Assembly (NCBI GenBank): GCA_048213135.1 | Contig: PS015067.1 | Location: 102,334-137,742, forward strand | Source of the DNA: Reclinomonas americana ATCC 50394 | Taxonomy: Eukaryota | Length of the DNA stretch: 35,409 nt | Direction: 5' to 3' | The notes under the pieces: generated by a model | Database searches by the model: none | The model's input: the letters and a program-made list of their open reading frames with translations, nothing else | Told to the model about the DNA's origin: nothing | Shown: one piece after another, positions 1,495-35,409 of the stretch | How positions within the stretch are numbered: position 1 is the first letter of the stretch | Layout: each line of letters starts with the position of its first letter | Made by a program: the position numbers and the translations under genes

Positions 1495-4328
1495 ATGGTG
1501 AGTAACGGCGCACCACTTGCTTCCTCCGCACGTCCCTCCTCTCTCTCTCTCTCTTCTTTGCGCGTTTGCCGCGTCGTTTTCTTGTCTGTCTTTTTTTCCT
1601 TTCTTGTGTGAGATGTCACAGACAACGCGCGCACGATAGCCGAAACACAGCGCTGCCTTCTGTAAACAAATGACAGAGACACAATACACAAGAGAAGAGC
1701 GCACACACATGCACATCATGTCTCGAGAATTTCCCCGAGATGTGTTCGCACGCTGTCTCTCTCTCAACTCCGCCTGCCTCTCTCCCTCTCCCTTCCCTCT
1801 CTCTCTTAATGTGACAGGCCGACGACGGAGCTCTTGGACGCACTGAGTCACAGCGCATGGTCGCTGAGTACCTCGACACGGAGGATCCGTTGGCCTTTTT
1901 GGCGGCGGTGGCTCGCGACGGCAACGTGGAACTGGTGAGGCGCACACTCGCAAGCCACGATCACCAGTCGCAGCATCGATTAACTGTGTGCTTGTGCAGG
2001 AGGAGTTCCGCATGGTGGTCAACACGCCCATCAAGGTCTCCAACAAGCACTGCCTTGTGCTTGCTTGTTGTGCTCACTGTCTCTGTTGCACAGGCCATCA
2101 TTCGTGGCTCGATTCTGCAGGTCATGGGTCGCCTGCCGCCGGGTCTTCGAGGTAATATACCATCGAGGATATCATGTATTTTGTCTGCTGCGCCGTGTTA
2201 ATATGTGGTCCGGTTTTTCCCGTGTTGCAGGCCAAGCGCGGCTGGAGCAGGTGGTCGACGGTGCGATGCACGGACTGGAGATGCGCTCGAACTTGCTCAT
2301 CCCGCAACTCTTCAAGGTCTCCTCGCCCTTCTGTTGGCGGGTCGTGTGGATGGATGGTTGTCTTACTGATTGATTGTGTCGGCAGTTCTTTGACCGCAAC
2401 CGTGATGGACGCATCTCCGAGGCCGAGGTCCGCGAGGTGCTGGATCTGTTTGCGCGACAGGACTTGCCGTCTCTGCTGGCCATTCTCGACGTGGTGCGTG
2501 ATGATGTATATCCCTCGTGCTGTGTTGGTTTCGCTTCTCACCCGTAATGCAGAACGGCGATGGTGTGTTTGATGCTACGCTCGGCGACTTTCACATTTTT
2601 CTTATTCGTTTTCCTCGCAGGCCACCTGACAAAGGACTCGCTGACGGCGCTGCTGGCTGACCTGGTGCGCATCCTGTGTTACCTTGTGATGGTGGACATT
2701 TTTCGCGCAACTCACGCTGCATGTGCACAGTTCGAGACGGTCGTCATGTTCAGCGACCAGCTCATCGACTCGCTGTCGCAAGTGCTCCTGTTCGACTCGA
2801 CGCTGATTCACAACGCCCTCTCCCTGGCCTACATGTTTGTCGACCAGGACGGAGAGTTGCGTGCTGACACACGAGATCACCCGCGCGCGCGTGTGTCACT
2901 CTCTCACTCACTGCTCTCAATAGTGGCGCTGTGACTGTCGACGATCTGCTCGCGCTCATCCCGCCGGAGAGTTGCGTCACTAAGCTTGTGCTCTCACCTT
3001 CGAGAAATACTCATGCACTCGGGACTCCTTCAACAGTGCTGCAGATGGTGGAGATGCAGCTGAATGCGCTCGCCGACTCGCCGCAGTCGCCGTACGGAAT
3101 GATGATGGCACAGTACCACCGCACCCGTGAGGTTGGTGCTCTGTTCGTTTTGTGTGTCGCGGTGACTGGCACCAACCTGCTTCAATGCAGCAATTCGTGG
3201 AGGCCAGCTCCAAGTCCGACGACGGACAGGTGTCAGAGGCCACCATGTACCGCATGGCACACGGTAACATTCGTGAGGACTTCATGCAGGGAGTTGCGCA
3301 TCTGTTTGCTGAATTCCTCTCCCGCTGTCACTCTGCTCACTCGGCCTCACAGGTCAACCAAGGCATGCAGCAGGCTGCCGTCTTCAACCCGGGTGCCGCC
3401 GCCTTGCCGCCCGCCATTCTCGCCTGTGCGTGCTCTTTTTCGGTGCCACAACATCGCCTGCTGCTGACCCTCTCACTCTCCCTCTCTTCTCCCCTCAGTG
3501 CTGTCGGAGAATGTGCCGGCTGTCATGGAGCGCAAGTTCCCTGCTCTCTTCTCCGCCGTGTTCAAGCTGATTGACAAGAACGTGCGTCAATTTGTGTGTG
3601 TCTCTCACCGGCACTGCTGCAACAGCGATGCTCAAGAAATGGTGGTGCGCAGGGAGACGGCCGTGTGTCGCTCGCCGAGTTCGAGTCCATGTTCCGTGTG
3701 GCGGAGGCCTTTGCGCCGTCGGTGGCCGGTAACCCGCCGATCAACCGCGTCCGCACTCTGCTGGTCAGCCTGCTGTCGATATTTGACATCAACATGGTGT
3801 GTGTGAACGAGCGGCGAATCTCGCGGTGTGTTTTTGTGCACATTGTTCCTCACTGCGTGTTGCTGCGGCCAGGACGGACGCGTGACCATTGAGGAGGCCG
3901 AGATCATCACCAAGCGCATGCTGCGCCTGATCCTCGAGGTGTGTATCCCTGCTCCGCAGTAGCAATACTCGGGTGACACTCACGCATCTCACGGCATGGC
4001 TTGTCAGATCATCCACGTGTACCTGGCCATCATCAAGGAGGTGGGCCTGTTGCTCATCCGCACTGAGGCTCTCGATCCGATCTTCCAGATTCTGGACCCC
4101 GAGAACACTGGTCGCGTGAGGTGCGTGCTGAAAAACTACAAGAACACGCGTATGTGCGTCCTCACTCATTTTTCGTTCCTCAACCCGTTTTGTAGTCTGG
4201 CGCGCGCTGCCGAGGCCGTGCCGCAGATTCCGATGATGCTGGCCATGCGGCAACAGGGCATGCTGGCGGGTGCTGGCATGCCGCCGCCGCCAGTGGACAA
4301 TGATGGCGAAGGCAACTTCCCCGAGTGA
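1495..4328 (+). CDS. Multi-EF-hand calcium-binding protein (about 15 exons)
   Basis: ATG|gtgagt at 1495, acceptor at 1817, then a phase-consistent GT-AG chain. EF loops after splicing: DRNRDGRISEAE, DVNGDGHLTKDS, DQDGDGAVTVDD, DKNGDGRVSLAE, DINMDGRVTIEE, DPENTGRVSLAR. Stop TGA at 4326-4328. Confidence 0.85.
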
Positions 4329-4458
4329 GCATTCTCTTCGCTCTGTCTCTCTGCTTCGTTTGTCGCTCTCGTTCCCTCCTCACATCGTGGAATACAAAAA
4401 AAAACAAGAGAGAAATCACTAGTCGCAGTTTCAATAATGATGTCAACGCACCCACTCA

Positions 4459-9300: not shown

Positions 9301-12300
9301 AGTACTCGCCCACCGCGTTCACGCCGCTGAACTGACTGGCTCCTTGCTGCGCGATGCACACAGCACAGGTCAGTGAGCAGGCTCCATCCAATCACCGCCA
9401 TACATACGACACGAACCACAGTGTGACCCAGCGACATGGCACCGGCAAGCACCGAGATGCCTCGACTCTGGCCACCAGTCTGCACACCAGAGTGAGAACA
9501 TCTCTATCAGCAAACTTTGTGAACGGGGACGCAACTGCCAGCATCGCAGTAGTGCGCGTGCCCGACAAAAAGTACTCGTACTCGGAGGACCGATTCACCG
9601 TCTCCACCATTTCGTGACGACTGGCGTGTGCGTACGTGCGATACTTTTCCATGCTGTCGTCTTCCGGTTCGTCGATAAACGACAACGAATCCTGCGAGGC
9701 ACGAACAACGGTGAGCATCAGTGCGCGCCACAGAATGCTGGCGTGGCGTGACGAAACATCATGAGCACTTGTCATCCTGTTCACAATGGCGAATCGCTGG
9801 CGAATGTCCTCGTCAATGACAGCAGGCATGATGGAGACGGCCGCCATGCGACCCTTGGTGCTGTGGTGCGATGCCAGTGAGGAGAGTACAACGGCAGCTG
9901 CAGTGCACCGGGGGGAAACGAAACGAAGATCGTGCATGATGCGCACTTGCCGCTCGACTGTCACGCGCCACCGACAGCCGCTTCTCGTAGGGCACCAGCA
10001 AGCGCCTGAGTGTGTACGTGAGTGAGTGGGTAAAGGAAAGTAGGCAGCTGTGTAGCTGAGGAACACAACTTGTAAAAGTTGGTCAGCTTGTGCGTCTGGT
10101 GCGCCTGCTCAAAGTACGTGTCGTCCTTGGGCCTGTCAAACAGCTGCTCTTCGGTGCATGTCGCCACGCCGGCGAGACCCTCCTCCTGATTGATGCGCGA
10201 AAAGAGCGATGCGTGCGGGTCCTCGAATTCCTCATTCGGCCGCACCCACCAGTCGTCACGGAGTCTGCGACACGAAATGAGCGCACATCCTTGCTGTGCC
10301 AACCCCGCTTCCGCTCCGACGCAACACTTGCATACTCTCCGATCCTTCGCCAAACTCGGTGGCAGTGTTGTGCAGATAGAAATCCGTGGGCAACTCCCAC
10401 AAGTGCGGCTTGCCAATCTCCGGCACGTAGTGTCCGAGGAACAAGTTGATGGCCTCTTGCTTCTCCGGATCCAAGAAGTTGTTGCTGTCGCACACGGCTG
10501 TCAGCTCAACGGATTATGCAAGGCGTGCGCAGCAACACACTCACCTGTAGAATCGTCGAATGTTGGACAGGATATCCCAGCTGACGCCACGGTGATGCAC
10601 ACCGGCACTGACAGTGCGTGAGCCGCCGTACTGCAGAGCAAAGTTGTCACCGGCCTCATCGTACAGATCCATCAGCGCCTGAATAATGTCCTCGTGGCCA
10701 ACGAACGAGGCGCGCGAGAAGGCGCCCAGTGCATGCAGCTACGCACAAGCGTCAAAGTGTAAGACGAAATGACTCGCACCCACAACCATAACACGCATGA
10801 ATGGTGGTGCGATCAAACCTGGTGCGCGAGCGCAGACTTGCCAAACAAAAACTGCGCAATGTTGGTGCGGTCGAGACAGTCCAGGCAGTTCGTGCGCAGC
10901 ACGCCACGCTGCAACGTGTATCCCTCGAATGGCTGCGAGGAGAAATCGTAGAGTCCGCTCTCCTCCAGCCAGTCCGCGCGCTCGACAATCACTTTGGAGC
11001 GGAAAATGTTGGTCTCCGAAATGGCTCCCTCACAAATGACGGCCATCGTAGTCAGTGCGCGACCGAGGTTGCGTTTGGCGGCGCCGCGGAAGTCCCACGA
11101 AATGTGCTGCAAATGGAGCAAGTGAGTGAGTCACGAGGAGCGGAGAAGTGGGTGAGAGAGTCGTGGTACAAGTCACCTGAATCTTCTTCTCGGCCGGCAG
11201 GAACTGGTTGAGATAATTGACCAGCTCGTCAAACTCGCGCACCAGCGGCATCTCTCGCGGCTTCTTCTCCTGTGGTTTTAGCAGATCGAGCAGAATCACT
11301 GGCATGCCGTAGCGTCGGAACAGATCCTGGAAGTGGAGACGCGCTGCCGTGCATTGCGGATCGTAGCGGCCCACTGTCGAAATGTAGAGTATGTGAGTGT
11401 CATCATCATCATCACCACCACCACATTGACTGCACGTTGTGTGCACGAAACTGATAATGGTGGGCTTGGGCGCCACAATGGCCTTCGATTGTGTATCGTG
11501 CGACCAGTAGACCGGCACCGAGCCACGCACTTGCACCACCGACGTGAACACGCCCTCGCGCTCGAATTCGTTCACCGACGACGAGTCGTACACAATCTGC
11601 TCGGTCTCCACCTCGTTGGCCACGTGGCCCTGATCGTTGATGCCACGCTTGAGGTACCGAGTACCGGCAAAGTAGCGCGAGCGGCGACCAATGAGCACAA
11701 TCGAGATGGANNNNNNNNNNNNNNNNNNNNNNNNNNNNNNNNNNNNNNNNNNNNNNNNNNNNNNNNNNNNNNNNAGTGTGGCAGTTGCTGTTATTGATCT
11801 TGATGTGCATCATGCAGGGTTCATTCGCTTCCTGCAAGGCTACTACATGATCCTGATCACGTCACGACGGTTGGTGGGCGCCATTGGGCCACACAAGATC
11901 TACGAGATCACCGACACGGAGCTGCTGCCGCTCTTCCACCCCGTGAAGCTGAAGAAGGGCTTGTTTTCGAAGGATCTCGAGCAGCGGTGAGAAGAAGCAG
12001 ACATGGGGAGAGAAGAAGAAAAACTCACGTTCTTGTATCCTCCTCGTCTCCGCAGCTACAAGGAGCTGTTCACGGGCTTTTCGCTGAACAAGAACTTCTA
12101 CTTTAGCTACACCTACGACCTCACACAGACGCTGCAGTACAACATGCAAATGTCGTCGTCGCCAACTGACGGCTCCGGTGGCAGGTATGTGAGCGCATCT
12201 CGCTTTTCATCTCTGGTGTGTTGCCTCACACCCTCCACCCTAGTTTTGCATCGCGCTTCCGTGGCCGTCCCGAGAGCAAGTTTGTGTGGAACACGTACCT

Positions 12301-13321
12301 GCTGCAGCCGCTGATTGCGTGTGTGGGCGAGTGCGAGTGGGTGCTTCGTGTGGTGCACGGCAATGTCGGCCACCGCAGTTGCGTCACCACTCACACTCCC
12401 CTCCGCTCTCCGCACTCCACGTTCTCACACACCCGAACAAGCGCAGCACTGAATATGTTTGGGCGCNNNNNNNNNNNNNNNNNNNNCTCTCTCTCATTTC
12501 TCAGCTCCTGCTCAGCTCCTGGTCAGCTGTGCATTGCTCTTCGTCACCCACTGTGCTTTTATCTCACGCTTTCTCACTCTCTCACACACAGGATCATGAA
12601 GCAGCCTAGCAGTAACTGAACAATCCCTGCATGATGGACATCAATAGCAGCAACTGCCACACACACACACACACTCTCTCTCTCTCTCCTTCTCAGCCTC
12701 CTGCTCAGCTGTGCATTGTCTACCTGCTTGTCTTTTCTCCCTTTCCCCTCTCCCTCTCCTCCCTTCCCCCCCTTCCTCTCCCCCAGCGCACCAAGGATTC
12801 CATAGGCCTTGGGCCCCCTCTGCAAGCCGCCGACATTGCGGCAGCCATGGTTGACCATCTCCATGAGATCACGCATCTCCTTGCGAGAGTACTCGCCCGG
12901 ATCCGCGACAATCTCCAGATCCGTGAGGTTGCCCGCACCCTCTCCCATCGTCGCATCTCCACTACCACTGCCACCAGCAGCCGCAGCTGCAGCACCAACA
13001 GCAGCCGCAGACGACGAACCGGAATCGCCCGCAGATTGCGGAAGATCTGTCTCCACAATGAGCACACATCGTCGCGCCACACTGTCATGCGCACACACGC
13101 ATAGACAAAGACCTGACTTGGCCACTACTCGCTCAATCTTGAGCACGCGAAACGTGCGTCGTGCATGTTCCGTTCCGACCAAGTAGTACCTCTGCACACA
13201 ACAGACATGATGATGAGCACACAATCACACACTTGCAACACACACACACACACACACTTACTTGTGGTGTCTCGTACAAGACAAACTTTTGCAGGCAAGA
13301 GGTGACTGGAGGCAAACGCAT
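6358..13321 (-). CDS. FIG4: FIG4/SAC3-type polyphosphoinositide phosphatase with C-terminal DEP and DUF547 domains (about 30 exons; internal block 11775-12466 inverted)
   Basis: FIG4-like N-terminus [26 protein letters not shown] motifs [34 protein letters not shown], catalytic [36 protein letters not shown] phase-consistent exon chain continues to DEP ([11 protein letters not shown]...[10 protein letters not shown]) and DUF547 ([44 protein letters not shown]). Stop at 6360-6358. Confidence 0.85.
11775..12466 (+). other. FIG4: Four FIG4 exons in the opposite orientation, bounded by N gaps (probably a mis-oriented contig)
   Basis: Encodes [15 protein letters not shown]...[16 protein letters not shown]...KFVWNTYLL...VVHGNV...LNMFGR. 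This is the SAC segment missing between the minus-strand exons ending AYGILG (about 12793) and starting [11 protein letters not shown] (11710). Confidence 0.9.
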
Positions 13322-13403: not shown

Positions 13404-16400
13404 ATGAGTGCGCCTCACTTGCGGCGCCCGTCCATGCCCGGACTGAGTGCCGAAGACCTGCAGCAAGTGGCCACACAAGCGCGACCTCTGTTGCGCACAC
13501 AGAAAAAAGTCTCTCTGTCTCTCTCGGTTTGTGTGCCGACTCTCACACTCACGCACACACAGAAAGTTGAGTCGGAATGTGGAGGCTGCGCGAGTTGAGG
13601 CACTGGATGGCCGCGTGCATCCGCTCATCTCACTGGCGCGCTACTCCAATGTGGAGATACTGAAGGAGGTGGCGCTGGCCCTCGCCGATGTCACCAAGCA
13701 CGGTGCGTGTGTCACGAGCACACACACACACGCACACACACACACACACACNNNNNNNNNNNNNNNNNNNNNNNNNNNNNNNNNNNNNNNNNNNNNNNNN
13801 NNNNNNNNNNNNNNNNNNNNNNNNNNNNNNNNNNNNNNNNNNNNNNNNNNNNNNNNNNNNNNNNNNNNNNNNNNNNNNNNNNNNNNNNNNNNNNNNNNNN
13901 NNNNNNNNNNNNNNNNNNNNNNNNNNNNNNNNNNNNNNNNNNNNNNNNNNNNNNNNNNNNNNNNNNNNNNNNNNNNNNNNNNNNNNNNNNNNNNNNNNNN
14001 NNNNNNNNNNNNNNNNNNNNNNNNNNNNNNNNNNNNNNNNNNNNNNNNNNNNNNNNNNNNNNNNNNNNNNNNNNNNNNNNNNNNNNNNNNNNNNNNNNNN
14101 NNNNNNNNNNNNNNNNNNNNNNNNNNNNNNNNNNNNNNNNNNNNNNNNNNNNNNNNNNNNNNNNNNNNNNNNNNNNNNNNNNNNNNNNNNNNNNNNNNNN
14201 NNNNNNNNNNNNNNNNNNNNNNNNNNNNNNNNNNNNNNNNNNNNNNNNNNNNNNNNNNNNNNNNNNNNNNNNNNNNNNNNNNNNNNNNNNNNNNNNNNNN
14301 NNNNNNNNNNNNNNNNNNNNNNNNNNNNNNNNNNNNNNNNNNNNNNNNNNNNNNNNNNNNNNNNNNNNNNNNNNNNNNNNNNNNNNNNNNNNNNNNNNNN
14401 NNNNNNNNNNNNNNNNNNNNNNNNNNNNNNNNNNNNNNNNNNNNNNNNNNNNNNNNNNNNNNNNNNNNNNNNNNNNNNNNNNNNNNNNNNNNNNNNNNNN
14501 NNNNNNNNNNNNNNNNNNNNNNNNNNNNNNNNNNNNNNNNNNNNNNNNNNNNNNNNNNNNNNNNNNNNNNNNNNNNNNNNNNNNNNNNNNNNNNNNNNNN
14601 NNNNNNNNNNNNNNNNNNNCCGTCTCTCACTCTGTGATGCAGGCGGCGCATGCCTCAACTTGGTGGAGTTCGGGGGTGTGGAACCGATCGCGGCACTGTC
14701 GTTGCACGAGAATGTGGAGGTGAGACGCACGGCGATTTCGGCGCTCATCAACATGTCGAGTCAGGTCGGTCACTTTCGCACCGTGGGCGTGTCGGCTGCC
14801 AAGTCGCTGGTCAACATGATTCGTGAGGGCGATGACACGGCGATGCGCAAGACCGGTGTGCAGGCGTTGGCGCGAGTGGCGGAGAACGGTACTTCGTCGA
14901 TCCGCTCCTGTTTCTCCTCCTCCCTCTACCGATCGCTTTCTCACGTGCATGCATGCAGTCGACTGTCACGCCACGATTCTGAAAGTCGGTGGCCACGAGG
15001 CACTGCTGGCGGTGTGCGATGAGGAGACCGATGTGGAGATGCTGTTGTCGGCGGCGCACACCTTGTCGTACTTGTGCTGCACCGATGCGTGTGCCGATGC
15101 GCTCATGGCCTCGTCGGTGTCGGCGACTGCGGCGGCCGCGGGCGATATGCGCAGCGCGGAGCAGCATACGTGCGAGACGTTGACGTCGTTGCTCAGCAAC
15201 GCCATGCACAGTGATGAGTCGCATGCGGTACTCGTGGATCCGTCGCACTCTCTGAATGCCACCTCCTCGGCCCTCTCGCCGTCGTCGTCGTCGTCAGCGG
15301 CACCGCACGGAGTGCAGACGGCGAGCACGCCAAAGTTGCCGCAAAAGATACAACGCGCACTGCGGGATGCTGCGTCGCCAGAAATGGCCGCGCTCACTGG
15401 TATGCGTGAGGAGCCGCGTCGTCACACTGGCACGCCGAGTCGGTGCGTTGCCGCCAGTCGTGCCGCTCACTCTCACAATGGAGCGATCGCTTCTCTGACC
15501 ATATTCACATCATGCAGGCGCGAAGATCACATGGCCGAGGTGTGGCGCAGTTCAGAGGGTGCCGCTGCTGCCGTGGCGTCCATGCGCTCGCACACGGCTG
15601 CGTCGTCGCCACCGCCGTTGCCGACGTCGCCCACGTCGCCCGATTCGTTCATTCGTCGCGCCCCACCCACGGCCAGTGGTGTGTCTGTGGCCGGCACGGT
15701 GGGAGGGACGCTGGCTGGTCACGGTAGTACCGCCACCGCCAGCGTCGTAGGCAACGGTGCAGGTGATGACGAGAGTCTCGACAGTCGTGGTCTGAATCGC
15801 GCCGAGGCGTTTAGGGAACGCGAGCGCGCTGGTTTCCGTGTGCCGAGTGACTGGAGCGACGTGGAGGTCTCCTTCTTATTCGCTCTTTGTGCGTGTACAT
15901 GAGTTGCCGCTCACCGTGCTGTGCACTCGCAGACGTGCATGACGGATGCGCCCGAGTACCGCATCACGAGTGTGGTCGGCGAGACGGCCAAGTGCATTGC
16001 GAACTTGTCGGTGTCGGGTTTCAGTCGCACGCTGCTGGCCAAGGGTCTGTTCACGGCGCTGTGTGCGGCGGTGGAGTTTGCCAACGGCACGCCCACCATG
16101 CGTGAGCTGGCACGAGCGTTGTATGAAGTGACCCGGGAAGGTGTGACACATCGCGCACGAAGCGCATATTGCGTTGCATTCACCAGCTGACCCGTGTTGC
16201 AGATGTGTCGGGAGACCTGCCGTCGTCCACCCTCTCGCGACTGATGGGCGTCGACGACAGCAAGACCAAGGTGTTTGCCATGCGCGTCATTCTCAATTTC
16301 GTGGCCACTTGTTGCGTCGTTTGTTGCTCCTCCTCCGTTGCTTCTCATTTCCTCACTGTCATCCGGTAACAGCGGCGGGTCGACTGTATACGGCTCAATC

Positions 16401-19400: not shown

Positions 19401-22400
19401 CGCGCTGTGGTGCGTTGGTTCTCCTGGCGTGTGATATTTATGACATGCTGAGCTCACATGAATGGCCGCTCGCAGTTCCTGGCCAAGCTCAAGGGCGATG
19501 GTCGACTAACGGTGCTGAAGGAGTTTTCGCGTTCCGAGGAGGCGCTGCTCGAGCACGAGGTTTGTGCCGATTCGACTGCATTCATGTGAAACACCGAGTT
19601 GTAACTCTGTGCGTGCAGGCCTGCGTCTTGTCGTCGCTGAAGCATCCGTTTGTGGTCAACATTGAGGCCGTCTTCAAGGATCGGCCAAAGGGCGGTCGCG
19701 ACTGGCAGAAAGCCTACATTCAGTTCCCGTACTACGAGGTGACGAAGTGGCACACATACTCGCTCTCTTTGTCACCCCAGCTCCGTCACTCATGCGCAAA
19801 TGCAGGGCGGAACGCTGCGCGAGTGGATGAGTTCCGGCGAACGTACTCCGTGGGAGCTGGAGTGTGTGTTCCGTCAGATTGTGCAGGGAGTCGGATACAT
19901 TCACAGTCAGCGCATCGTGCATCGGTTTGTGGAAGAGAGAGAGGGGAACGCGAGTGTGACGTGATCGGATGCTGACGGCAGTGGGTGGGTGCGCAGTGAT
20001 CTGAAGCCAGAAAATGTGTTCATGACACGATTGGGTACGCCGAAGATTGCCGACTTTGGATTCGCGCGCACCGAGAGTATCCTGCGCGACTCGCGCACCA
20101 GTTGCGTTCTCCCTGCTGTGCTGTCTTCACATCTCTATTGCGCCCCTGAAGACTCACTGTCGGCGGCAGGTGAATTCATTGGAACTCGTCCATTTGCGGC
20201 GCCAGAGGTCCTGCTGCCCATGTATGCGCGCTCGCTGTCGGGCTCCTCGAAGAAGGGCAAGCACATCCGCTCGTCGGCCGGGCGATCTCGAAGCGATGCC
20301 AGCAGCTCGCTGTCACCTTCGGTTCGTGCACTCTGCCTGTCTCCATTGCATTTCCCGTGCTCTGTCCTCATGCATCTCACAGAGCAAGTCGAATCCGTCG
20401 TCGTCTTCGTCATCGTCGTCGCCCATGTCGTCGTCGCGTGCCTCGTACAAGTCGGACATGTGGAGTCTCGGTGTGATGATTTTGGAGGCTCACTTCGGGC
20501 CGCTGGAGGATTCGTTGCGTCGATGCTGTGCTTCCGTTCATGGGACAGGGACTGACCCTTGCCTCGCCCGAAACAGACCACGTCCCAAGTCCGACGCACA
20601 CAGCGTCATTTATGCAACGCCACTGGCCGCCTCCAGTGTGTTTACCAACTACTTTACTCCGACCACGCCACCGCGGACCAAGGCACGTGTGCGGATCTCG
20701 CAGTTTCCTTGCTTTTTATCGTGGCAGTGCACTCACGCACCACAACACAGCAGAAGATCTCCCGTCGCTCCAGCTCGGGATCCCTTGGCAACCCGCCAGG
20801 CGCCGCCACTGGTCTGTTTGGCAAGATTGAGATCCCCGACAAGGATGCGCTGCGAGAGAACCTTCGCCGCGACATGACGGATGAGATGTTTGCGCAACTG
20901 AGGTGAGTCGGGCGTGTCGCACAAGAGTGCTGGTGTCACGCCTCGCTGATGTTTTCATACATCGTAGATCACTGCTTCGCCGCCTGCTGGCCATCGATCC
21001 GCGCCACCGCCCAAGTGCCATTGAGTTGCTGGCTCATCCGTACTTTTCCACCCCGCATGCGCACATGCTGCACCGCGATCGCTTCTTGATTCGCAGGTGC
21101 GGGCCCGTGCTTCAGTGTTCACGTGTGTCTGTCTGTCTGTGTGCACTCACGTGTCGGCACACAGCGACGACAAGATTCGACAGATCCGCGAGGTGTGCGA
21201 CGAAAAGTCCCGCGACATCCCGCCCATCGAGCTCACCGTGTCGCGGGCCCACATTGTCAATGACGTGGTGGAGGTGCGAACGCACACACGCGTGCGAGTC
21301 GGTTGTGCACTAATGTGTAATATCTAACAACCCTACTATTTTTCCACGCGCGGCAGGTCTTTAGCGCCATGACACTCGACGAAGACATGCTGGCACCGCT
21401 GCACACGCAGCTGCTGGAGGACAGTGGCGAGAGCGGCGAGGACATGGGTGCCGTGTCGGACGACATGTTTACCGAATTCTTCACGCGTGTTCTCGATCCG
21501 AAGCTGGGGTACGTCGGCGTGTGGAATGCGTTTATTATCCAAGCTTGGTGTGCTCATCTTGCGTTGTGTTGCAGCTTGTTCGAGGCGTCGTGCGGCATCA
21601 ACGGTGCCGACCCAGACAGCGAGTTGTATTTGCCGGTGCCAAACACCGATGCTGAGTTTGCGTACGAGAGTGTTGGTGCGGCGCTGCTCAAGTGCCTCAT
21701 TGACAACCGCCCGGTGCACGCGCGATTTGCGCCGTCGCTCTTCAAGTACTTGCTCGACATTGACCCGTCGTACACCGATCTAGAGGTTGGCTGCCGCGCG
21801 CATTGATATGTGTGTGTGTGCGCTCGACAGTAGCTGACCATTGCTCGCGTCGCAGTTGTACGATCCGCAGTACGCACACAACCTGCGCGAGTACGTGCTG
21901 CACAAGACGATCACGGAGCCGACGTATTTGCACTTTATCAGTGACACGGGTGAAGAGAAGGAGCTGAGCGAGGAGAACAAGTACGAGTACGTGAGGAAAC
22001 AGGTGCGGTTGCAGTTGCTTCTTGTGGAAGTCAAAGAAGTACGACCTCGCTCACTCTCCTCTGGTCCACAGATTTACGAAAAGTTGATTGGCTGCCGGAA
22101 ACAGCATCTGGAGGCCATCAAGCGCGGCTTCACACGCGTCAACATGTCGTTGTGGCTGAAGGGTCTCAACTGCACCGAGCTCATGTTGTTGCTGTGCGGC
22201 GAGGACTACTTGGACTCGGACATGGTGCTGCAGAATGTGGTCTTCTCGTCGTCCTTCCCCGAAGGGTCACCGACCCCGGACTATGCGCGGAGATTCCTGC
22301 GTGATTGCGATTCAACAGGTGTGCGGTTTGATTGGTGGGGCGCTGTTGCTCTTTGTCATAGTCGCACGACTCAACAGAGAGCGTCACTCACAGCTCTGCG

Positions 22401-22852
22401 ACGATTCCTCCGTCTGTGCACCTCGTTGATTGCCATTCCGTACGGTGGCTTCCAACAGAAGATCACCGTGTTCCCTTCGAGTTGCGTCCCTCGTGTTTCT
22501 CCAGGAAGCAGCCACTCGGCCTCACACGCGCTCTCCTCTCGTCCGAACAGGCCGTCTGTATGCGCAGACGTGCTTCCACCACTTGGAGGTGCCGGAGCTG
22601 CCGTCGTACGAGGACTTTGCGGCGGCAATGCTGGCCGCCATTGTGGCTGTCGACAGTGCAGGTATCATTGTCATGAGACTGTTTATTGGTGTCTATTCTC
22701 ATGTTCTTCTCATCACCTTCACCCCTTTCTCTCTCCCTGCACCAGGCATGGAGGAGGACGTGGAGTCGAACGACGGCGATTTTGAGTTGCAAGACGACCA
22801 GCAAATGGGACAGTTTGACCGATCGCCCTCTGGCCAGTCACTCGACAGTTGA
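13404..22852 (+). CDS. Armadillo-repeat + coiled-coil + Ser/Thr protein kinase + HECT E3 ubiquitin ligase fusion (more than 35 exons; one gap at 13752-14619)
   Basis: ARM-like repeats (GGVEPIAALS..VEVRRTAISALINMS; GTVNALVNVA..IRVQRASAAALCCI; EVDRQAVQALCNIS). Kinase motifs TVLKE, LKHPFVV, HRDLKPEN, KIADFG, GTRPFAAPE, SDMWSLGV, DPRHRPSA. HECT motifs GEDMGAV, FAPSLFKYLL, DLELYDP, EENKYEYV, LEAIKRGF, and AQTCFHHLEVP (Cys at 22571-22573). All junctions traced are GT-AG and in phase. Stop at 22850-22852. Confidence 0.8.
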
Positions 22853-22974: not shown

Positions 22975-25696
22975 TCACCATACACCGCCCGTCCAGCCCT
23001 CCCACAAAAGGTGCGGCTGCGAACCGATCGGCACACCATCGCGATCGACGGGGATCGAGGCGCGCACTACAGACCGCATGGCGTGTTGCTGCATCATGGC
23101 TGGTGAGTTTCGCAAGGCGACAAGTGAGTGAGACAGAGGTGCCAAACCGGATCGTGCGCACTGGCCCGCAGCAAAGAGGCCAGACAGAGAGCCATTTTCT
23201 GCACACCGAGTGGGAACTTCAACTCACGCACGCTTGCTCGGAAGCCGCTGTCCACGGCACGAATGTACACGCTCGGTGTGCAGAACGGCGCCTCCACGCG
23301 CTCGCCGACGCCGAGCAGATCCGTGACCCCTTGTCCACACAAGTCTCGCATTCGTGACTCGGGCACACTTACACGCACGCATTCACCGTCAGCGTCGCGC
23401 AGTTCCAGCTGGGCACGGGTGGGAATGAGCGCGCGGGGTGGCAGGAGAAATGGAAAAGACAAGAGGAATGCACCTCGACTGGGCACATGTGCCACGCGAA
23501 TGGTGGCGCCGGAGAGGAACCACTGTCGGGTCGCAGTGCAGCCTGCAGCGCGCAATCTTCGGGGCACGACAGCACATCGTTACGATCGACTCGGGCGCGT
23601 TTGCCGCAGCACGTGCACACGTAGTCCAGGCAGACGCGAGCGGCCAGCAAACAGTCGGAGGAGAGGGAAGCCGCCGACGCCACCTTGTTGACCAAAAAAA
23701 GATGAGAAACGGTCGAGCAGGGAAACAGAGAGAAGAAGAAGGCGCACCGCATCGGCCGTCAGCACCACCCGTCCGATCGCCGACTCCAGAGTGATTGAGT
23801 GCACCCATGCGTCGGCCGTGCGCTGGTCTGTGCAGCATCCAACAATCAATTCCTGGGCACGAGGCACAGATGCAGGAGTTGCCCCACTTCCACCTTCGAC
23901 AACGAGGCCCCGCAGAGCGCGACACTGCTGCATCGGTGGCGCAGCAGACGACGAGGAGGATGAGGAGGGTCCAGCAGCAGCAGCAGCACCGCCGAACGAC
24001 ACCGCTTGTGGCACTATGCAAGAGGCAGTCAGCAGCAATCGAGCACAGTGGCCAAGAGTGGAGATGAACCATGTGCATGCAGCGACGGTGGAAATGGTGG
24101 TGCGCCCGTGGCAGAATAATACGCCGCTGACGCCACCAGTGTAGTCTTGTGCTTGCACATTCCTGCGGTGACTGGAAAGTGAGTCCGACACATAGCGATT
24201 GATGTCTCGGTGTGCTCGCGCAACTCTTGAAGAGGCCGACACACGGGGTCTTGAGGTTCTCCGGCACGCTGCTGAGCCACCGATTCATCTCCTTTTCTGT
24301 GAGCAAGCATGTGAACATCGTCGTTCGGGCTTGGAGTGTGCGACAAGGACTTACCACGCAGATTGCCCTCTGGCATCTCTACTAGCCGCATGATGATGCT
24401 CATCCACGACAGGCGCACAAAGTACGAGCCGTCCATCAGCAACACACGTGCACCTGCCACATGTCGTCGACTCAGCTCATCTGGCGAGCCACGGTGCAAT
24501 GATCTATACGCAACAGGCAATGTACACAATGTCGAACGGACGCAGGAGCTCCACCAGCGGAGCATCGCGGTCGCGGGCCAGCAGCGCCGGTACCGACGAC
24601 AGCGTGGTGTCGGAACGGGAGCTGATGGTGGACAANNNNNNNNNNNNNNNNNNNNNNNNNNNNNNNNNNNNNNNNNNNNNNNNNNNNNNNNNNNNNNNNN
24701 NNNNNNNNNNNNNNNNNNNNNNNNNNNNNNNNNNNNNNNNNNNNNNNNNNNNNNNNNNNNNNNNNNNNNNNNNNNNNNNNNNNNNNNNNNNNNNNNNNNN
24801 NNNNNNNNNNNNNNNNNNNNNNNNNCAGAGAAGACGACGTGGATGACTGATCTGCCGACGGGAAGCACGACTTGTCGGCCAGCACCAGCAGCGGCAACCC
24901 GTTGGCCGTCGCTCCAATCTGCGCACGACACACCCATGAACACCGCATCGCACGATAAAGAAAAGGCACGCATGCGAACGCGCACATGCAACACGGTGCA
25001 CATCAGCGACACAATGTCCATGTGGCGACACTCGCGAATGGGCACCGGTGGCAAGTAGCGAAACGATCGCATCTCCTGCGCCTCTGGCAGTCGATCGGTG
25101 AACGGCGCGATCAGCACGCGCGAACGCCGTCGCTTAACGGGCGTCACGGCATCGTCGGAGAGGGAGGCTGTCGCCGGTCGCTTCCGATCGCTCGCAAAGA
25201 GATCCAGCGACGGCTCCGGCTCCAGACTCGGACTCGACGCCACCGACGACGACAACGACGATGCAAACACGCCACCACCACTGGAGGACAACGGCGCAGA
25301 AGGCGACGACAATGAGGAGACTGTCGATCGCAGCGCAGATGATGACGACGGCGGTTCCTGCGACAGCGGATTCGTGGTNNNNNNNNNNNNNNNNNNNNNN
25401 NNNNNNNNNNNNNNNNNNNNNNNNNNNNNNNNNNNNNNNNNNNNNNNNNNNNNNNNNNNNNCGACTGCAGGCGATCGATGAGCGCGTTGACACACGCATG
25501 GATGGAGAGGGGTGGGGACACACACCTGCTCATGCTGTGCATCGCGCAACTGCTCCAGCAGCACTGCAGGCACCGCTTGCCCTCTTGCGATGAAGCTGTC
25601 GACCGTGCGACGTAGACGCTCCAGCGCGTGATCTGCGGAACGATGATTAGCTAGTAGTGAGGCAAGGCAGCGATATAACACTGTCTCACCACTCAT
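22975..25696 (-). CDS. OB-fold ssDNA-binding protein with a zinc ribbon, SHLD2/FAM35A-like (two internal gaps)
   Basis: ATG at 25696. OB-like strands IVSLMCTVLHIG..LLVLADKS..LRPFDIVYI. C-terminal CTCCG..DRND..CPEDC..PVELELRDADGECVRVSV..CLASLL..DP..PVDRDGVP, with the last exon ending at the stop 22977-22975. Family assignment is from remembered similarity. Confidence 0.55.
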
Positions 25697-25790: not shown

Positions 25791-26989
25791 ATGTCACGCA
25801 TTCTCGTCGTTGGCGCGGAGGCCTCCACAGTGACACACGCCGCACAGCAGCTGCGCGCACAGGGAGCAGAGGAGGTGGTGGAGATGTGCACACGAGGAGC
25901 TTATTTGGGTGCGACCTGGTCACCATCATCACTCTCTCTCTCTTCACACACACACACTCACTCACTGACACGCGAGAGACGCACAGAGCAACTGCCGTAC
26001 GGTGAAGACTCGTTTGATGTGGTTGTGTTTGAGGGCTGGCGACCAGAACGACGACTGTTGAGCTACACTCTGCGAGTGGTCAAAGCCGAAGGTCGTGTGG
26101 TGCTCAACAACAGTGGTGGCGACGATGATACTCTGGCCTCGGACTTGGTGTTGAGTGGGTATCAGAGTCCAGTGGTGCGAGGCACAACGGTGAGTCAGAG
26201 AGAGAGAGACACACAGAGAGAGAGAGAGGAAGAAGAAGAACAAGACTGAGCTCTCTCTCTCTCTCCCTCACTCACTCATCACATACCCACAGATCACTGC
26301 GTCGAGACCAACATGGAAGGTCGGTGAAGGCCGGCAGTTGCTGAGAAAGAAGAAGAAGACGGCGGCGCCGTTGGAGGGAGAAGGTCTGCTGTTCGGCCAA
26401 GTGGAGTTGTCACATCTGCAACGCTGTGGTGTCTCACGTAACGTAACGTGCGTGTTATGCAGCATTGGAGGCCAGCATCAATGCCTTCCGTGCGGCAGCT
26501 GCGGCGGCGGAGACGGCGAGTGTGGAGCTGGTGGACGAGGATGCGTTGTTGGAGGAGAGTGAGTTGACAGCACGGCCGACGTATGGAGGTGAGGCATCGC
26601 GCTCGTGCACAGACAGGTGAGGGAGGAGGAGTGGCTGATTGTCGCGCTGAACAGGTGAGCAAAAGAAGACCAAGGGCGCGTGCAAGAACTGCACGTGCGG
26701 TCGGGCCAAGCAGGAGGCGGAGGCGGAGACAGCGGCGGCGGCGAGTGCGCCGACACCGGTTCGCGTGTCGGCCATGGATGACATGCCCAAGTCGGCGTGT
26801 GGAAGTGTGCGTTTTTGCTTGTGTGTCTCTCTCCTTGTTTGATGTGTGGTCAACGAATTGACCGTGTTGTGACAGTGCTACCTGGGCGACGCCTTCCGCT
26901 GTGCTGCATGCCCGTTCATGGGACTGCCGCCGTTCAAGCCCGGTGAAAAGGTCACCATCAGCTCGACGTTCTTGGCGGACGACATCTGA
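25791..26989 (+). CDS. CIAPIN1: Anamorsin / Fe-S cluster assembly protein Dre2
   Basis: Methyltransferase-like N-terminal domain ([22 protein letters not shown]), acidic [16 protein letters not shown] and [32 protein letters not shown]. Stop at 26987-26989. Confidence 0.95.
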
Positions 26990-28899: not shown

Positions 28900-29326
28900 A
28901 TGGTGAGAGCGCGCGCGTGTCTTCCTCTCTTCTCTTGTTTGTCTGCTCACTTCTCGCCTGTGCACAGTCGGACAAGAGAGCAGCCACTGGACTGGAGAGC
29001 TGGGCCACGGAGTTGCGTTGTGAACACACACACACACACACTTTCTCTCTCTCGCTCACTCACTCACTTGCATGTCACAGCTTCGTGTACCCTTCACGCT
29101 TCTCACTGCAGTCCAATCGCAAGGCGTTCCCCAAGGTAACCTCACTTCACAATCTCCCATTGTGTGCATGCATCATCATCATGTGATTGATTAGGATTCG
29201 ACTCTGAGTGAGTCGTGGGCCGGTTCGCGCAACTATCAGCACAGTGGATGGTGGATTGTGCTGGCACTTGTCTTGTTCCTGCTGGCATCAATGGTCTCGC
29301 GACGAGTGGGATCACTGGCCACGTAG
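28900..29326 (+). CDS. Small (77 aa) predicted tail-anchored membrane protein, 4 exons, not seen intact in the ORF track
   Basis: Exons 28900-28902 (ATG), 28968-29011, 29081-29135 and 29195-29326 joined by GT-AG introns of 59-69 nt. Translation: MSDKRAATGLESWATDFVYPSRFSLQSNRKAFPKDSTLSESWAGSRNYQHSGWWIVLALVLFLLASMVSRRVGSLAT. Confidence 0.65.
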
Positions 29327-29447
29327 TGAAGGCAACGACGGAAAATGCTTCCCGAGTTTACACACACACACAGAGTTCGCTGTTGGAGTCGCCGTAGAGA
29401 GGGTAGCCCCTAAAGGGACGGGGGGAGGCTTCGCGCTTTGGTGGCGC

Positions 29448-32404
29448 CTATCGAGCCTTCCAGCATTCCAGCAGAAACTCGGAGAACTCGTCTGGTTCGT
29501 CGGCGACGCCACCGGCCAGGTGCACCACGGCTTCCACTTGAGGATTCGAGGTGCTGATGCAGGGGGTGAGAGAAGGTGTGGAGCAGGAGCGAGGAAAGAG
29601 ACACGCACCGACGTAATCGTTGGACCAGCGCGGTGATGAACGCTTCGGTGAAGCCGGGATGGGCGCGCTCGACTTGCACCAGTTCGCGCTCCACTTCGTG
29701 TGTGTCGCAACCGGTCTGCCGGCGTGCAAACTCGTGAGTGACGCGTCGAATTCAACGCAACAAGTGAGCGAGACGAACCTCCTCGAGCGCCGGTAGAACG
29801 TAGTTGGTCAGCAGCGAATTAGACGTAGCAATGGTGGTCTCCGACCGGACTCTGCCGATCACGTACGAATCAGCCACACGGATGTCACCTCGCGCGCACA
29901 CCCCATCACTCACCGCTCAGGTCTCGGCACGGAGGACGACTCGCCGGGTGCCGGTGACATGCCACCACCATTAGCTCGCTGCTGCGGTGTGGGAGACATC
30001 TGACAAAGGGGGAGGTGAGTGGGGAAAGACACGGAAAACGAGTGGACGACCGGAACGCAACATCGACTTGTGCACCGCCCAGTGGACTGAACCGTGGCGG
30101 TGGAATGGGCGACGGCAGCTGCAACACCGACGGCGACGCGGATGGCGTCACAGAGGCTGTGGCCGACGAGACCACGGATGAAGCGGCCGCGGACAAGTGC
30201 GACGGCGGCTGCGGGGAGGGTGCCGGTGAGGCGGTGGCCGATGAGCCGCCAGACGCTGCGCCAGGCGTGTCGCGTGGTCGCATGGTGAAACTCCACCCCG
30301 GATCGGAGGAGTCGGCGCCCGAGGCCGAACCCGACGGTGGGTTGCTGGAGCGTGTGGTGAGTGATGAGGTGTGGGAACGGGACAAGGGAAGGAGACGAAA
30401 CAGACGTCCCGGATCGTCGTCGTCAGAGTCGCGATTGGCCTCGTACATCTCTCTCCGCTCAATGAGGTCCACCAGCAGGGAGGTTTTCTTGGCGCTTTTG
30501 ATGAAGCGGTGCTTCAGAAGCTCGCGGGCGGTTGGTCTCTGAGAGGGGGGAAGGAGGGAGAAAGAGAGCAGGGTCAGCGCGCAACGAGAGAAGGGAGGCG
30601 AGTGCAACGAGGGAGGCGAGTGCAACGAGGGAGACGAGTGCAACGAGGGAGGCGAGTGCAACGAGGGAGGCGAGTGCAACGAGGGAGGAGTGCAACGAGG
30701 GAGACGAGTGCAACGAGGGAGACGAGTGCAACGAGGGAGACGAGTGCAACGAGGGAGACGAGTGCAACGAGGGAGACGAGTGCAACGAGGGAGACGAGTG
30801 CAACGAGGGAGACGAGTGCAACGAGGGAGGAGTGCAACGAGGAAGGAGTGCAACGAAGAAGGCAAGCGCCGACGGACTGCATGATACGAAATCCGAAGTA
30901 TCACGGGGAAACGCAACTGCTTCTGGCTCCTTCTGCAGACAGGCCGCCACAAACTCCTTGAAGGAGCGCGAGAAGTTGCCCTCCAGCTGTGGCGGTTGCG
31001 ACTTGGGAATGACAAAGAGAGCACGCATCGGGTGGAGGTCCGAGTACGGCGGTGCGCCTTTGGCCATCTCAATCGCGGTGATGCCCAACGACCAAATGTC
31101 ACACTGTGCCGACACTGGTGAGGAAAAGGCCAGTGACAAGCACTCTCTGCAGCAAGCGAACCTTCTCATTGTAGCCCGACGTTTGACGGATGACCTCACT
31201 GCATGCCAATCGGTTAGAAGTCGCCAGGAGGGAGACTAGGGAAGGATCAGCAGTAACGCAACGCTGCGGAGGGAGGGAAGAGTGAGTGTGAGGTGAGACA
31301 AAGGAGAGGGGTGTAGTATTGCAGCAAAAAAACGCAACGAGCCATCCAGAACGGTGTGCCAACAAATGTGTGTCTCTTGGTGCGGTTTTCCGAGAGCTGC
31401 AGAGCGAGGGTGAGATCAACGGAGGGTACGAACCCGACAGATACACACGTTCACCTGCGCAGCGACACCAAAATCGGCAAGCTTCACGTCACCGTTGGAG
31501 GCCACGAGAATGTTGGCCGCTGCATGATTTTCCCCCCGACAATTCAGCATGCAGTGCAAGTTGCAAACACCCCGTGCTCCTGCATTTCGGAGGAGGAGCA
31601 AAAAACGTACGTACCCTTGATGTCGCGATGCAGCTTTTGTGACGAATGCAGGTACTCCAGCGCCTGGTGCGCAACAGTGAGCAAGGCGGACAGCGAGCAG
31701 CGCACGTGGAAGAACAATACCTTGAGCGTCTCGCGCAGGATCACGGCAATGTACATTTCCTGCAACGGGTTCCGAGTGAAACAGAATGCGGAGAGAGGGG
31801 TGGGAAAGGGAGGCAGAGAGGAGAGAGAGAGAGAGAGGAGAAGGAGGAGGAGAAGGAGGAGGAGGACGGTGGGAGACGAAGGGAANNNNNNNNNNNNNNN
31901 NNNNNCCTCTCGTGTGTGTGCCCCTCACCAAATCATGCACAGAACCCCCCTCCAAGTACTCCATAATGATCCACAAATGCTGACCGACCACCACCGAACC
32001 ATGAATGGCGACGACCAGTGGTGACGCACACTCCAACATGACATGAATCTCTCGTTGTATCTCCTCAATCTCCTCCTCCGCCTCCTCCAAGTCAATCACT
32101 TTGATGGCCACACTGGCGCCACTCTCCTTGTCGCGACTGTGCGCATGTGTGTGTGTAAGAGAGAGAGAGAGAAGAGGGGAAGGGGAGAGTGTGTGTGTGT
32201 GTAACGCAACGCGCGCCACACTTCGCCAAAGCTTCCCTGCCCAATCTTCTCCACGAGCTCAAATTGCTCAGCATGCACACTGCGATGTGCGCGCTGTGTG
32301 TGTGTCATGTGTGAGTTTCATAGAGTGTGTGTGCAAGTGTGTGTGAGAGAGAGTGTGAGAACCATGGCAGCGGAGGAGGCGCCGGAGGATTTCCGCTTCA
32401 GCAT
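29448..32404 (-). CDS. STE20-family GCK-III kinase (MST3/MST4/STK25/SvkA-like) with a C-terminal dimerisation-type helical region
   Basis: [126 protein letters not shown]-terminus [13 protein letters not shown]...FLLECWKAR. Confidence 0.93.
30600..30858. repeat. Intronic minisatellite, about 15 copies of an 18-bp unit GAGTGCAACGAGGGAG(A/G)C (a few 16-bp variants)
   Basis: Direct tandem copies start at about 30600, 30618, 30636 and so on to 30846, inside the 379-nt kinase intron 30917-30539. Confidence 0.95.
31263..31263 (-). other. Predicted single-nucleotide exon (C) in the GCK-III kinase gene
   Basis: Minus strand: ATG GCT C|gttgcg..75 nt..ccgcag|C|gttgcg..64 nt..catgcag|T GAG GTC. This restores MAPEV. 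Confidence 0.8.
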
Positions 32405-34158: not shown

Positions 34159-34599
34159 ATCTTATTGTGAAGTTGTGCCAAGAATTGTGTTTTCTCGTGT
34201 TCATGGATGACAGCGCGCTGCTGAACATTAATTCTTGTTGGTGTGCCAATGGTCATCGTCGGCAAGGGATTTGTGGACATTTGTCGCATTATTGGAATGT
34301 GGTGAATGAAGTGTTTTTCTGTTCATGTTGCAGCTGTGTTGCTGTTGATTAGAAAAGTTGTTGTTATGTTCGATATCATGAATGAAGTGTTTCCGCATAG
34401 TATCGCGAATTCGAATTCTCGTTCTGCAGGCCTGCTGCCCTCGATCCGGCTCTTCTGCGTATTCTATCCTCCCCTTGCAACCCTCCTCTTGCACCGTCAA
34501 CGCGCAGCAACGAAGCCGAGACAACTGCTCGCGCGTCCCGTTTTCATTTGTCCACACGAGAGAAAAGACGAGTAAGAGGCTCATTCTCACACAAACACA

Positions 34600-35409
34600 A
34601 TGCGCTATGACGGCGTGTTTGGTGTGTTCGCCTTTGTGACAGCAGGGTGCGTGGCGGCACGCCTGTCGCGCAAGGCGTTCGGACCGCCCTCCGATGACGA
34701 CAATGATGTCAATCCGTTTGAGGGTTCGCGCAAACGACACACACACACGTGCCTTCCATCCTCCACACTCACCACCTCTCTCTCTTTCTCTCTTTCCTCT
34801 TCTCTCATCGCAAACACACACACAGACATACAATCAGTGGCGGGTGGTGTTGGAGGACAGAGTCGGCCACGTGGTCAGTTGCCCTTCCAGCAGGCCTATT
34901 CGTGGGCATACTCGCTGTTCGCCTTCTCCGACTGGCTTCAGGGACCATACTCGTTCCTCGTCTACAACACAGTGTGGGCCTACTCGACACAGTCGATCGG
35001 AGCACTCTTCCTCACTGATTATGCCGCTGAGCTGCTGCTCGGATTGCCATTTGCCACGCTGCTGGCGGAGAGAATGTTGCGCTGTGTGACCGCGTACGTT
35101 GATGAGAGCAGGCATTGTTCTAAATCACTGGCTTGTGCACGCACAGAGGACGGAAGAAGAGTTGTCTGCTGTGCGGCATGTGTTACATTCTGTCGTGCTC
35201 GTCGGTGTGGAGCGCGTCGACATATGTACACGTGGCCGGTCGTGCGCTTGCCGGCTTTGCCTCGTCGATCTTGTACTCGGCGTTTGATGCGTGGGTGGCT
35301 GATGAGCATCGCAAGAATCGCCTGCCGCCAGAGGAGCTGACGTCGGTGTTGTCGTCGGCGGCGTTTGCCAACAGCATGTGTTCGGTGCTGGCCACCCTCA
35401 CAGGTGACT
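34600..35409 (+). CDS. MFSD5: MFSD5/MOT2-type molybdate-anion MFS transporter, 5' part (runs off the window)
   Basis: N-terminal hydrophobic segment, FQQAY..YSL..SDWLQGPY, IGALFL, then after the intron at 35076: GRKKSCL..YILSC..GRALAGFASSILYSAFDAWVADEH. Confidence 0.88.

Follow-up and report, generated by a model that had tools for sequence, protein, structure and literature searches.

We analysed a stretch of eukaryotic nuclear DNA 35,409 bases long (contig PS015067.1 of the Reclinomonas americana ATCC 50394 assembly GCA_048213135.1, positions 102,334 to 137,742 of the forward strand; hereafter the window), which has a G+C content of ~58%, is interrupted by seven gaps of N and carries genes whose short introns are densely packed (~120 introns per 35 kb in the gene-finder models of the window). 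Our subject is a group of 5′ splice sites (donors) in these introns that start with GTTGCG and do not follow an exonic G. The genes in which they lie include an EF-hand gene, a large gene with Sac, DEP and DUF547 domains, a run of Arm-repeat, protein kinase and HECT ligase sequences, a GCK-III/MST-type kinase gene and an MFS_5 transporter gene; their identities come from Pfam matches on the open frames together with later homology searches, and their coordinates are given with those of the splice sites in Table 1. Throughout, a caret marks the exon–intron boundary, exon bases are counted back from −1 and intron bases forward from +1, and the coordinate of a minus-strand donor is that of its +1 G.

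GTTGCG was present at all 21 coordinates at which a first-pass annotation of the window had placed such donors (12 on the plus strand and nine on the minus strand). The annotation had stated that the last exon base before GTTGCG is always A, C or T, and this proved correct: the preceding base is A at 12 of the 21 sites, C at five, T at four and G at none. The bare hexamer is not over-represented, with 40 copies on both strands together against 36.3 ± 6.1 in dinucleotide shuffles of the window, 32 of 100 of which reached 40; the heptamer GTTGCGT is enriched (20 copies against 9.0 ± 2.6, a count reached by 0 of 100 shuffles), and the listed donors make up 17 of its 20 copies. The signal is positional, that is, it is the placement of GTTGCG that is special and not its count. 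GGTTGCG occurs four times in the window, three times antisense to exons and once inside an exon, and none of these copies is a donor. Among 80 metagenome loci with related DNA (401 kb), none of which is close to the window (the best match reaches 84% identity, across part of a single exon), GTTGCG was not enriched, with 107 copies against 122.8 expected.

Introns were modelled with a semi-Markov gene finder that combined three-periodic coding log-odds with explicit GT…AG introns, a learned profile of acceptors and a wide prior on length. A first run without a penalty on GC donors, too noisy for use, often cut at GTT^GCG, in frame three bases downstream, so that the exact cut needed an independent test. 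In a donor-neutral run, in which only GT was required, 117 introns were returned and GTTGCG was the commonest donor hexamer, found in nine of them against 1.0 expected from a random choice of GT dinucleotides as donors (GTTGCG accounts for 40 of the 4,639 GTs; binomial p = 9e-7), a 9-fold positional enrichment. This run recovered nine of the 21 listed sites (2856, 2971, 3293, 9535, 10325, 16311, 16680, 20101 and 20514). With a self-trained donor table, and hence partly circularly, GTTGCG was found in 15 of 117 introns, and four listed sites (8292, 12378, 16873 and 22481) came from this run only. The resulting catalogue holds 121 introns, combining the self-trained models with a profile-corrected kinase gene and a corrected MFS_5 intron, and 91 of these are high-confidence or homology-placed; one junction beside a run of N, for which 31928 and 31877 compete, was left out of the counts. 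Six of the 21 sites are placed at the level of the residue, eight more by the neutral gene finder and a further four by the self-trained run only. Thus the estimate of the first-pass annotation, that ~20 of 110–120 introns start with GTTGCG, stands for the motif at every site and for 18 sites as intron starts, but not for the remaining three, of which 30061 is tentative, 24224 weak and 29012 unsupported. The class makes up roughly 15–17% of the introns of the window, or about one in six.

The six sites placed blind to the donor sequence, by homology or protein motif, are 32210, 31338, 31262, 30917, 35076 and 2856. For the kinase gene, every in-frame pairing of a GT or GC donor with an AG acceptor in the vicinity was scored against a profile of 68 full-length GCK-III kinase homologues, and four junctions fell exactly at ^GTTGCG (32210, 31338, 31262 and 30917), with margins of 4.7–10.5 bits over GTT^GC (individual values in Table 1); a slide of one base would change the messenger RNA at each of them, because the downstream exons begin with T, C, T and A respectively. 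The junction at 32210 also preserves an 11-residue spacing found in three homologues, and the splice product of 30539–30917 is gapless against the kinase homologues. In the unconserved parts of the gene the profile was uninformative, with differences of <1 bit. In the MFS_5 gene, profile positions E94 R95 I96 G97 are gapless only with donor 35076 and acceptor 35146, whilst the site at 2856 was placed by a PROSITE-type EF-hand loop pattern, in a region whose neighbouring exons have sub-threshold EF-hand Pfam matches. GC–AG introns with a cut at GTT^GCG are rejected on the bits lost at the four kinase junctions and on the EF-hand loop that such a cut would break at 2856. Judged from the sequence, the GTTGCG sites are real donors, cut before a GU.

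Two of the kinase donors flank an exon of a single nucleotide. The C at 31263 provides the second base of a proline codon, CCT, within the conserved kinase motif WMAPEV; it lies between introns of 75 and 64 nucleotides (nt), both of which start with GTTGCGT, and every single-intron model shifts the frame. Single-nucleotide exons are known but very rare (PMC4674806, PMC12940212).

A second motif behaves in the same way. Donors of the types GTTTCG and GTTGTG had been reported alongside GTTGCG; the former was confirmed, at 11451 by a protein profile and at 30401, but each of the GTTGTG cases, at 18745 (plus strand) and 10069 (minus strand), is ambiguous with a GT that lies in frame three bases downstream. 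Scored against a profile of 103 Sac-domain homologues, the 11451 intron was the best of 464 extra-intron options, 23.8 bits above no intron and 10.8 bits above the next option. Both gene-finder runs had read through 11374–11451 because the intron keeps the frame and contains no stops, and it was revealed only by the homologue profile.

Table 1. Donors of the GTTGCG class and related splice features, followed by the genes of the window. Lower-case letters before the caret are the last exon bases.
Feature	Position	Strand	Evidence and remarks
68-nt intron, donor aga^GTTGCGTG, EF-hand gene	2856..2923	+	Neutral gene finder; splice gives DQDGDGAVTVDDL, an EF-hand loop match lost with GTT^GC
66-nt intron, donor aga^GTTGCGTC	2971..3036	+	Neutral gene finder; high-confidence flanks
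60-nt intron, donor gga^GTTGCGCA	3293..3352	+	Neutral gene finder; catalogue flanks
69-nt intron, donor cga^GTTGCGAA	8224..8292	-	Self-trained run only; coding scores of flanks 7.4 and 9.5
56-nt intron, donor gca^GTTGCGTC	9480..9535	-	Neutral gene finder; catalogue flanks
61-nt intron, donor agt^GTTGCGTC, end of Sac domain	10265..10325	-	Neutral gene finder; homologue alignment ends 13 residues before junction
78-nt in-frame intron, donor tca^GTTTCGTG, second shifted-type motif	11374..11451	-	Sac profile
Donor gca^GTTGCGTC	12378..12383	+	Self-trained run only; Sac homologues align with exon end VVHGNVGHR
62-nt intron, donor ctt^GTTGCGTC, Arm-repeat gene	16311..16372	+	Neutral gene finder; catalogue flanks
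67-nt intron, donor gca^GTTGCGTG	16680..16746	+	Neutral gene finder; catalogue flanks
69-nt intron, donor aac^GTTGCGTC	16873..16941	+	Self-trained run; neutral run took GT 12 nt downstream, in frame
51-nt intron, donor cca^GTTGCGTT, protein kinase activation loop	20101..20151	+	Neutral gene finder; catalogue flanks
90-nt intron, donor ttc^GTTGCGTC	20514..20603	+	Neutral gene finder; catalogue flanks
70-nt intron, donor cga^GTTGCGTC, HECT domain	22481..22550	+	Self-trained run; high-confidence flanks
Listed donor aga^GTTGCGCG, weak	24219..24224	-	Possible 62-nt intron to 24163; flanking coding scores low, 2.5 and 0.5
Listed donor gga^GTTGCGTT, unsupported	29012..29017	+	Upstream coding signal absent (score -2.3); this strand lacks a gene model
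Tentative 62-nt intron, donor gat^GTTGCGTT, unconserved kinase-gene tail	30000..30061	-	Upstream coding score 15.0; several acceptors possible
57-nt intron, donor tct^GTTTCGTC, related shifted-type motif	30345..30401	-	Gene finder and catalogue; generic U1 pairs 2.5 canonical, 6 shifted
379-nt intron, donor gca^GTTGCGTT	30539..30917	-	Best of 60 options; 484.4 bits against 478.4 for GTT^GC (loss of 6.0) and 443.2 for earlier two-intron model
64-nt intron, donor c^GTTGCGTT, directly 3′ of one-nucleotide exon	31199..31262	-	Better of 2 in-frame options; GTT^GC lower by 6.8 bits
One-nucleotide exon (C)	31263..31263	-	Sequence reading; gene finder at low intron penalty; top model in profile test
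75-nt intron, donor ctc^GTTGCGTT	31264..31338	-	Best of 6; +10.5 bits over GTT^GC, +24.5 over retention
74-nt intron, donor cgc^GTTGCGTT, kinase glycine-loop region	32137..32210	-	Best of 34; +4.7 bits over GTT^GC
71-nt intron, donor aat^GTTGCGCT, MFS_5 transporter gene	35076..35146	+	Pfam MFS_5 coordinates
EF-hand protein gene	~1.8-4.3 kb	+	
STAND-type NTPase exon	4.5-6.1 kb	-	
Sac-DEP-DUF547 large single gene	~13.6-6.4 kb (about 6360-13620)	-	Sac, Fig4-like phosphoinositide phosphatase
Arm-repeat gene, protein kinase and HECT ligase	14.7-22.9 kb	+	
WD40 gene	26.9-28.8 kb	-	
GCK-III/MST-type kinase gene	32.8-29.4 kb	-	
WD40 gene, single exon	33.1-34.2 kb	+	
MFS_5 transporter gene, 5′ part	from 34.6 kb	+	

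A dependence on the −1 base was seen in each set of junctions compared. In the high-confidence or homology-placed set, G stood at −1 in none of 17 GTTGCG donors compared with 49 of 74 others (p = 2e-7), whilst A stood there in nine of 17 compared with one of 74 (p = 3e-7). The motif-blind run gave the same picture, with G before 0/9 GTTGCG donors and 51/107 others (p = 0.005), and A before 6/9 and 9/107 respectively (p = 1e-4). Codon-position composition is insufficient to explain this, since for the 18 phase-known catalogue donors the probability of finding no G is 9e-4 and A was found at 10 of 18 where ~3.6 (20%) would be expected (p = 1e-3). Among the 12 junctions placed by profile only (eight in the kinase and four in the Sac domain), all five not after G have GTT(G/T)CGT and none of the seven after G does (p = 0.0013), the donors of the latter being GTATTG, GTACGT, GTGAAC, GTTCGC, GTGACT, GTTTGA and GTGAGT. 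The earlier description of donors after G as mostly GTGCGT, GTGTGT, GTTTGT or GTGAG covers ~17 of 49, the rest being very diverse. Canonical donors after AG^ are unusually degenerate on the intron side (GTCTCC, GTATTG and GTGAAC among them), and +4 is a pyrimidine in 39 of the 49 donors after G, unlike the A usual in most eukaryotes.

The consensus of the other donors is (G/C/A)-A-G^G-T-(G/T)-(T/C)-G-(T/C), and GTTGCGT read one base late reproduces it: the +1 G stands as the −1 G, the +3 T as the +2 T and positions +4 to +7 as +3 to +6, with +7 being T in 14 of 17 donors and only the +2 T, which stands in the place of the +1 G, mismatching. The second motif pair obeys the same +1 rule, H^GTTTCGT (H being A, C or T; 11451 and 30401) occurring alongside canonical G^GTTCG(T/C). 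The exon side provides a fair test of register because it forms no part of the definition of the class. For the 21 donors, the three final exon bases score a log2 likelihood of −116.5 against the canonical exon profile shifted by one position and −174.3 against the unshifted profile, compared with −128.5 under the coding background, so that the exon-side preference moves with the register and −1 behaves as the canonical −2 (58 bits better than unshifted and 12 bits better than background). The claim that ^GTTGCGT is G^GTGCGT slid by one nucleotide is, as a description, supported statistically by these exon ends and by the match of +4 to +7 with consensus +3 to +6. Paired with a generic U1 5′ end (PMC4856993), which may not be that of the host, the 17 GTTGCG donors score 3.65 pairs in the canonical and 5.53 in the +1 register, whilst the other donors score 5.84 and 3.41.

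Away from the donor, the class resembles the other introns. A branch-like CT[ACG]A[CT] motif is found in 12 of 16 class introns and 57 of 74 others, at a median distance to the 3′ end of 16 and 17 nt respectively; the intron ends in CAG in 14 of 16 and 64 of 74, the median lengths are 68 and 66.5 nt, and the G+C content is alike. U12-type introns have the donor consensus RTATCCTT with a matching branch site. An assignment to this type was rejected, because the donor is GTTGCGT and because these introns share with the others their branch-like motif, the distance of that motif and the CAG end. Mobile introns of the introner type were likewise rejected, as the 120 within-class pairs have a mean local alignment score of 7.89 compared with 7.78 for 2701 other pairs (Mann–Whitney p = 0.81). 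GTTGCG introns are not a second kind of intron, and phase is the one further difference.

On balance we lean towards the view that GTTGCG(T) donors form a true and abundant class of 5′ splice site in ordinary major-type introns, read by early recognition shifted by +1. Such a site would be the consensus (G/C)AG^GUGCGU with the intron +1 G replaced by U, giving (G/C)A^GUUGCGU, and this replacement would leave the sole usable GU one base upstream. The U1 small nuclear RNA (snRNA) 5′ end would then pair one nucleotide off its usual register, as probably would the later contact with the U6 ACAGA box, with the +1 G serving for the usual −1 G, the −1 A for the −2 A, and U+3, G+4, G+6 and U+7 for +2, +3, +5 and +6. 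The chemistry would still take place on the true GU, with the cut directly before its G, and the intron would go on to a normal branch motif and a final CAG. We put forward more tentatively, as a possibility short of an even chance, that the spliceosome here routinely works one nucleotide off register, with at least one sixth of introns (^GUUGCGU and ^GUUUCGU) bound by U1 and then by U6 at +1, with a −1 G forbidden because it would pull U1 into the unproductive normal register, and with a signal carried wholly by the intron and strong enough to define the introns around the one-nucleotide exon.

Several points weigh against a shifted reading. The shifted helix keeps two internal mismatches (U+2 opposite C8 and C+5 opposite position 5) and is weak by pairing alone. 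H^GTGCGT donors exist, with four in the high-confidence set, and the one at 3582 fits an EF-hand loop, so that donors not preceded by G are not all of the GTTGCG type. The complete lack of G at −1 exceeds what a pure shift predicts, given that G at the canonical −2 position amounts to 11–19% and 2–4 of 21 would be expected (P(0/21) ~0.01–0.09), and an additional constraint may exclude G at −1. Three of the 21 listed sites are weak or unverified, and the catalogue, built by our gene finder from a single 35-kb window, is noisy, having misplaced the junction at 10544 and missed the intron at 11451 until corrected by homology.

The best surviving alternative, though an unlikely one, is that the class is read in the normal register by an snRNA particular to the lineage, be it a U1 whose 5′ end is divergent or lengthened, a second U1 paralogue or a U6 with an altered ACAGA box directly complementary to GUUGCGU, the exon pattern then reflecting the next bases of that RNA or selection against an over-stable helix. 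The uniformity of the motif, which is GTTGCG by definition and mostly continues with T at +7, is what a dedicated partner would produce, and the pyrimidine at +4 of most donors after G is unpaired by generic U1, so that the local U1 may differ. Such an RNA leaves unexplained, however, the enrichment of A at −1 (12 of 21), the advantage over background of an exon profile moved by one base, and the same +1 relation in the GTTTCGT/GTTCGT pair, and the 3′ halves of the class introns are identical in character to those of other introns. Less probable still is recognition mainly without U1 pairing, in which U6, U5, Prp8 or a protein factor would read the heptamer and the exon bias would stem from intron phase, codon context or the like. 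The class is indeed biased in phase (phase 0 in 3/17 compared with 38/74, p = 0.015), introns in the window are very short, which makes definition across the intron by a strong intron-side signal plausible, and two of the class donors flank the 1-nt exon, where exon-side pairing is lacking. Yet the codon-position composition considered above does not remove the effect on either G or A, and under this reading the exact one-base match to the consensus, which extends to either side of the junction, would be coincidental.

A bulged U1 register, in which G+1 and U+2 pair normally (G+1:C8 and U+2:A7), one U of +2/+3 is bulged out and GCGU pairs like +3 to +6, is a mode validated experimentally in human cells (PMC4856993). 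It is very unlikely here, and we reject it, because normal exon contacts would be kept: −1 would still lie opposite C9, where G should be favoured or neutral and would be expected at ~30–40% from coding composition, whereas G was found at none of 21 sites, and the unshifted exon model is far the worse of the two. Least credible of all, and largely refuted, is an artefact, in which the sites are not donors, are cut at GTT^GCG or are mobile introner copies that bring their own end and have a target-site preference; GTT^GC does keep the frame and was picked by the run without a GC penalty, and the bare hexamer is at chance level, but against these stand the bits lost at all four profile-tested junctions, the broken EF-hand loop at 2856, the positional enrichment over random GT and intron bodies that are no more alike within the class than among other introns.

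Human shifted-register 5′ splice sites are rare and A-rich, of the GUUAAGU type. The donors described here resemble them in starting with GU, in having the downstream consensus one position late, and in that the +1 G would take the place of the −1 G opposite C9 of U1, with U+2 mismatched; if the host U1 has the generic 5′ end, they would also form more pairs in the +1 register. They differ in that GUUGCGU is a shift of the local GUGCGU, in accounting for ~1/6 of introns, in having a second member, GUUUCGU, and in avoiding G at −1 completely, and U1 pairing here is our inference. Shifted and bulged registers are known from a small minority of human sites and were demonstrated minigene by minigene. 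The shifted-register mode has been established experimentally in human cells (PMC4856993, whose reference 10 for these sites is reportedly Roca and Krainer 2009). The bulged or asymmetric-loop registers (PMC4856993 and its reference 16) are likewise noncanonical alignments, and a bulge at +2/+3 would fit GUUGCGU, but they keep normal exon-side pairing, which the exon ends here do not. In our full-text search, from which subscription journals are mostly absent, shifted U1 registers were met in human and tunicate work only (PMC13326754, PMC11162779), and no description of a GTTGCG or GUUGCG donor class was found, the matches to the motif being primers, aptamers and similar sequences.

In ordinary donors, the exon side and the intron side of the 5′ splice site compensate for one another. 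The window shows something similar, since donors after AG^ are degenerate on the intron side and donors not preceded by G have a full intron-side signal, but ordinary compensation leaves a G at −1 neutral or welcome, whereas here G is excluded, A is enriched and the intron motif is offset by one base. A further parallel is provided by Ostreococcus and other genomes whose introns are constrained, with strict GTGCG(T/C) donors (PMC2483917), which share a GC-rich composition, a GTGCGT-type donor and short introns with a clear branch motif; these genomes, however, are intron-poor with uniform signals, in contrast to the ~120 introns in 35 kb, the very diverse donors and the offset class found here. 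What is elsewhere a rare mode thus appears, on the sequence of this one window, to be a major class. With proof from RNA, something rare in human genes would here be an everyday means of marking introns, and the genome would be a natural experiment in which the position of cleavage is uncoupled from U1 pairing and the handover from U1 to U6 takes place with a disagreement of one base. Gene finders trained on GTRAGT-like donors, or allowing GC donors, would misplace GTTGCG junctions by three bases and would miss in-frame introns and micro-exons such as those at 11451 and 31263, which our runs passed over.

Other features of the window were also noted. The closest proteins to the kinase exon are ~80% identical and those to the Sac exon ~49%, their sources being very diverse eukaryotes, and the Sac + DEP + DUF547 architecture recurs in several protist or metagenome proteins, a Euglena gracilis transcript among them. 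A small contig at 11775–12466, between runs of N at 11711–11774 and 12467–12486, is inverted in the scaffold: residues 96–229 of Sac-domain homologues align on the plus strand and the flanking parts of the gene on the minus strand, and the intron from 12378 runs into the gap at 12467–12486. An Rfam search found no snRNA gene in the window and only weak microRNA-like matches; those at 26185–26285 coincide with a low-complexity hairpin of (GA)n/(CT)n (fold z = −1.9, matched by 8 of 200 shuffles) that is probably meaningless. No transfer RNA genes were found in the window. The unusually long kinase intron of 379 nt contains an 18-nt unit repeated 15 times (95% matches) at 30592–30856, one frame of which reads as SSPSLH repeats. 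In the Arm-repeat gene, five successive exons of 108–126 nt at 16203–17064 (plus strand) each correspond to ~1 repeat and are all separated by phase-1 introns. In the EF-hand gene, introns at 2856, 3582 and 3797 (plus strand) interrupt three loops within or just before DG (DQDG^DG, DKN^GDG and DINM^DG), and because all three loops are cut at this point, these introns appear to be older than the duplication of the EF-hand units.

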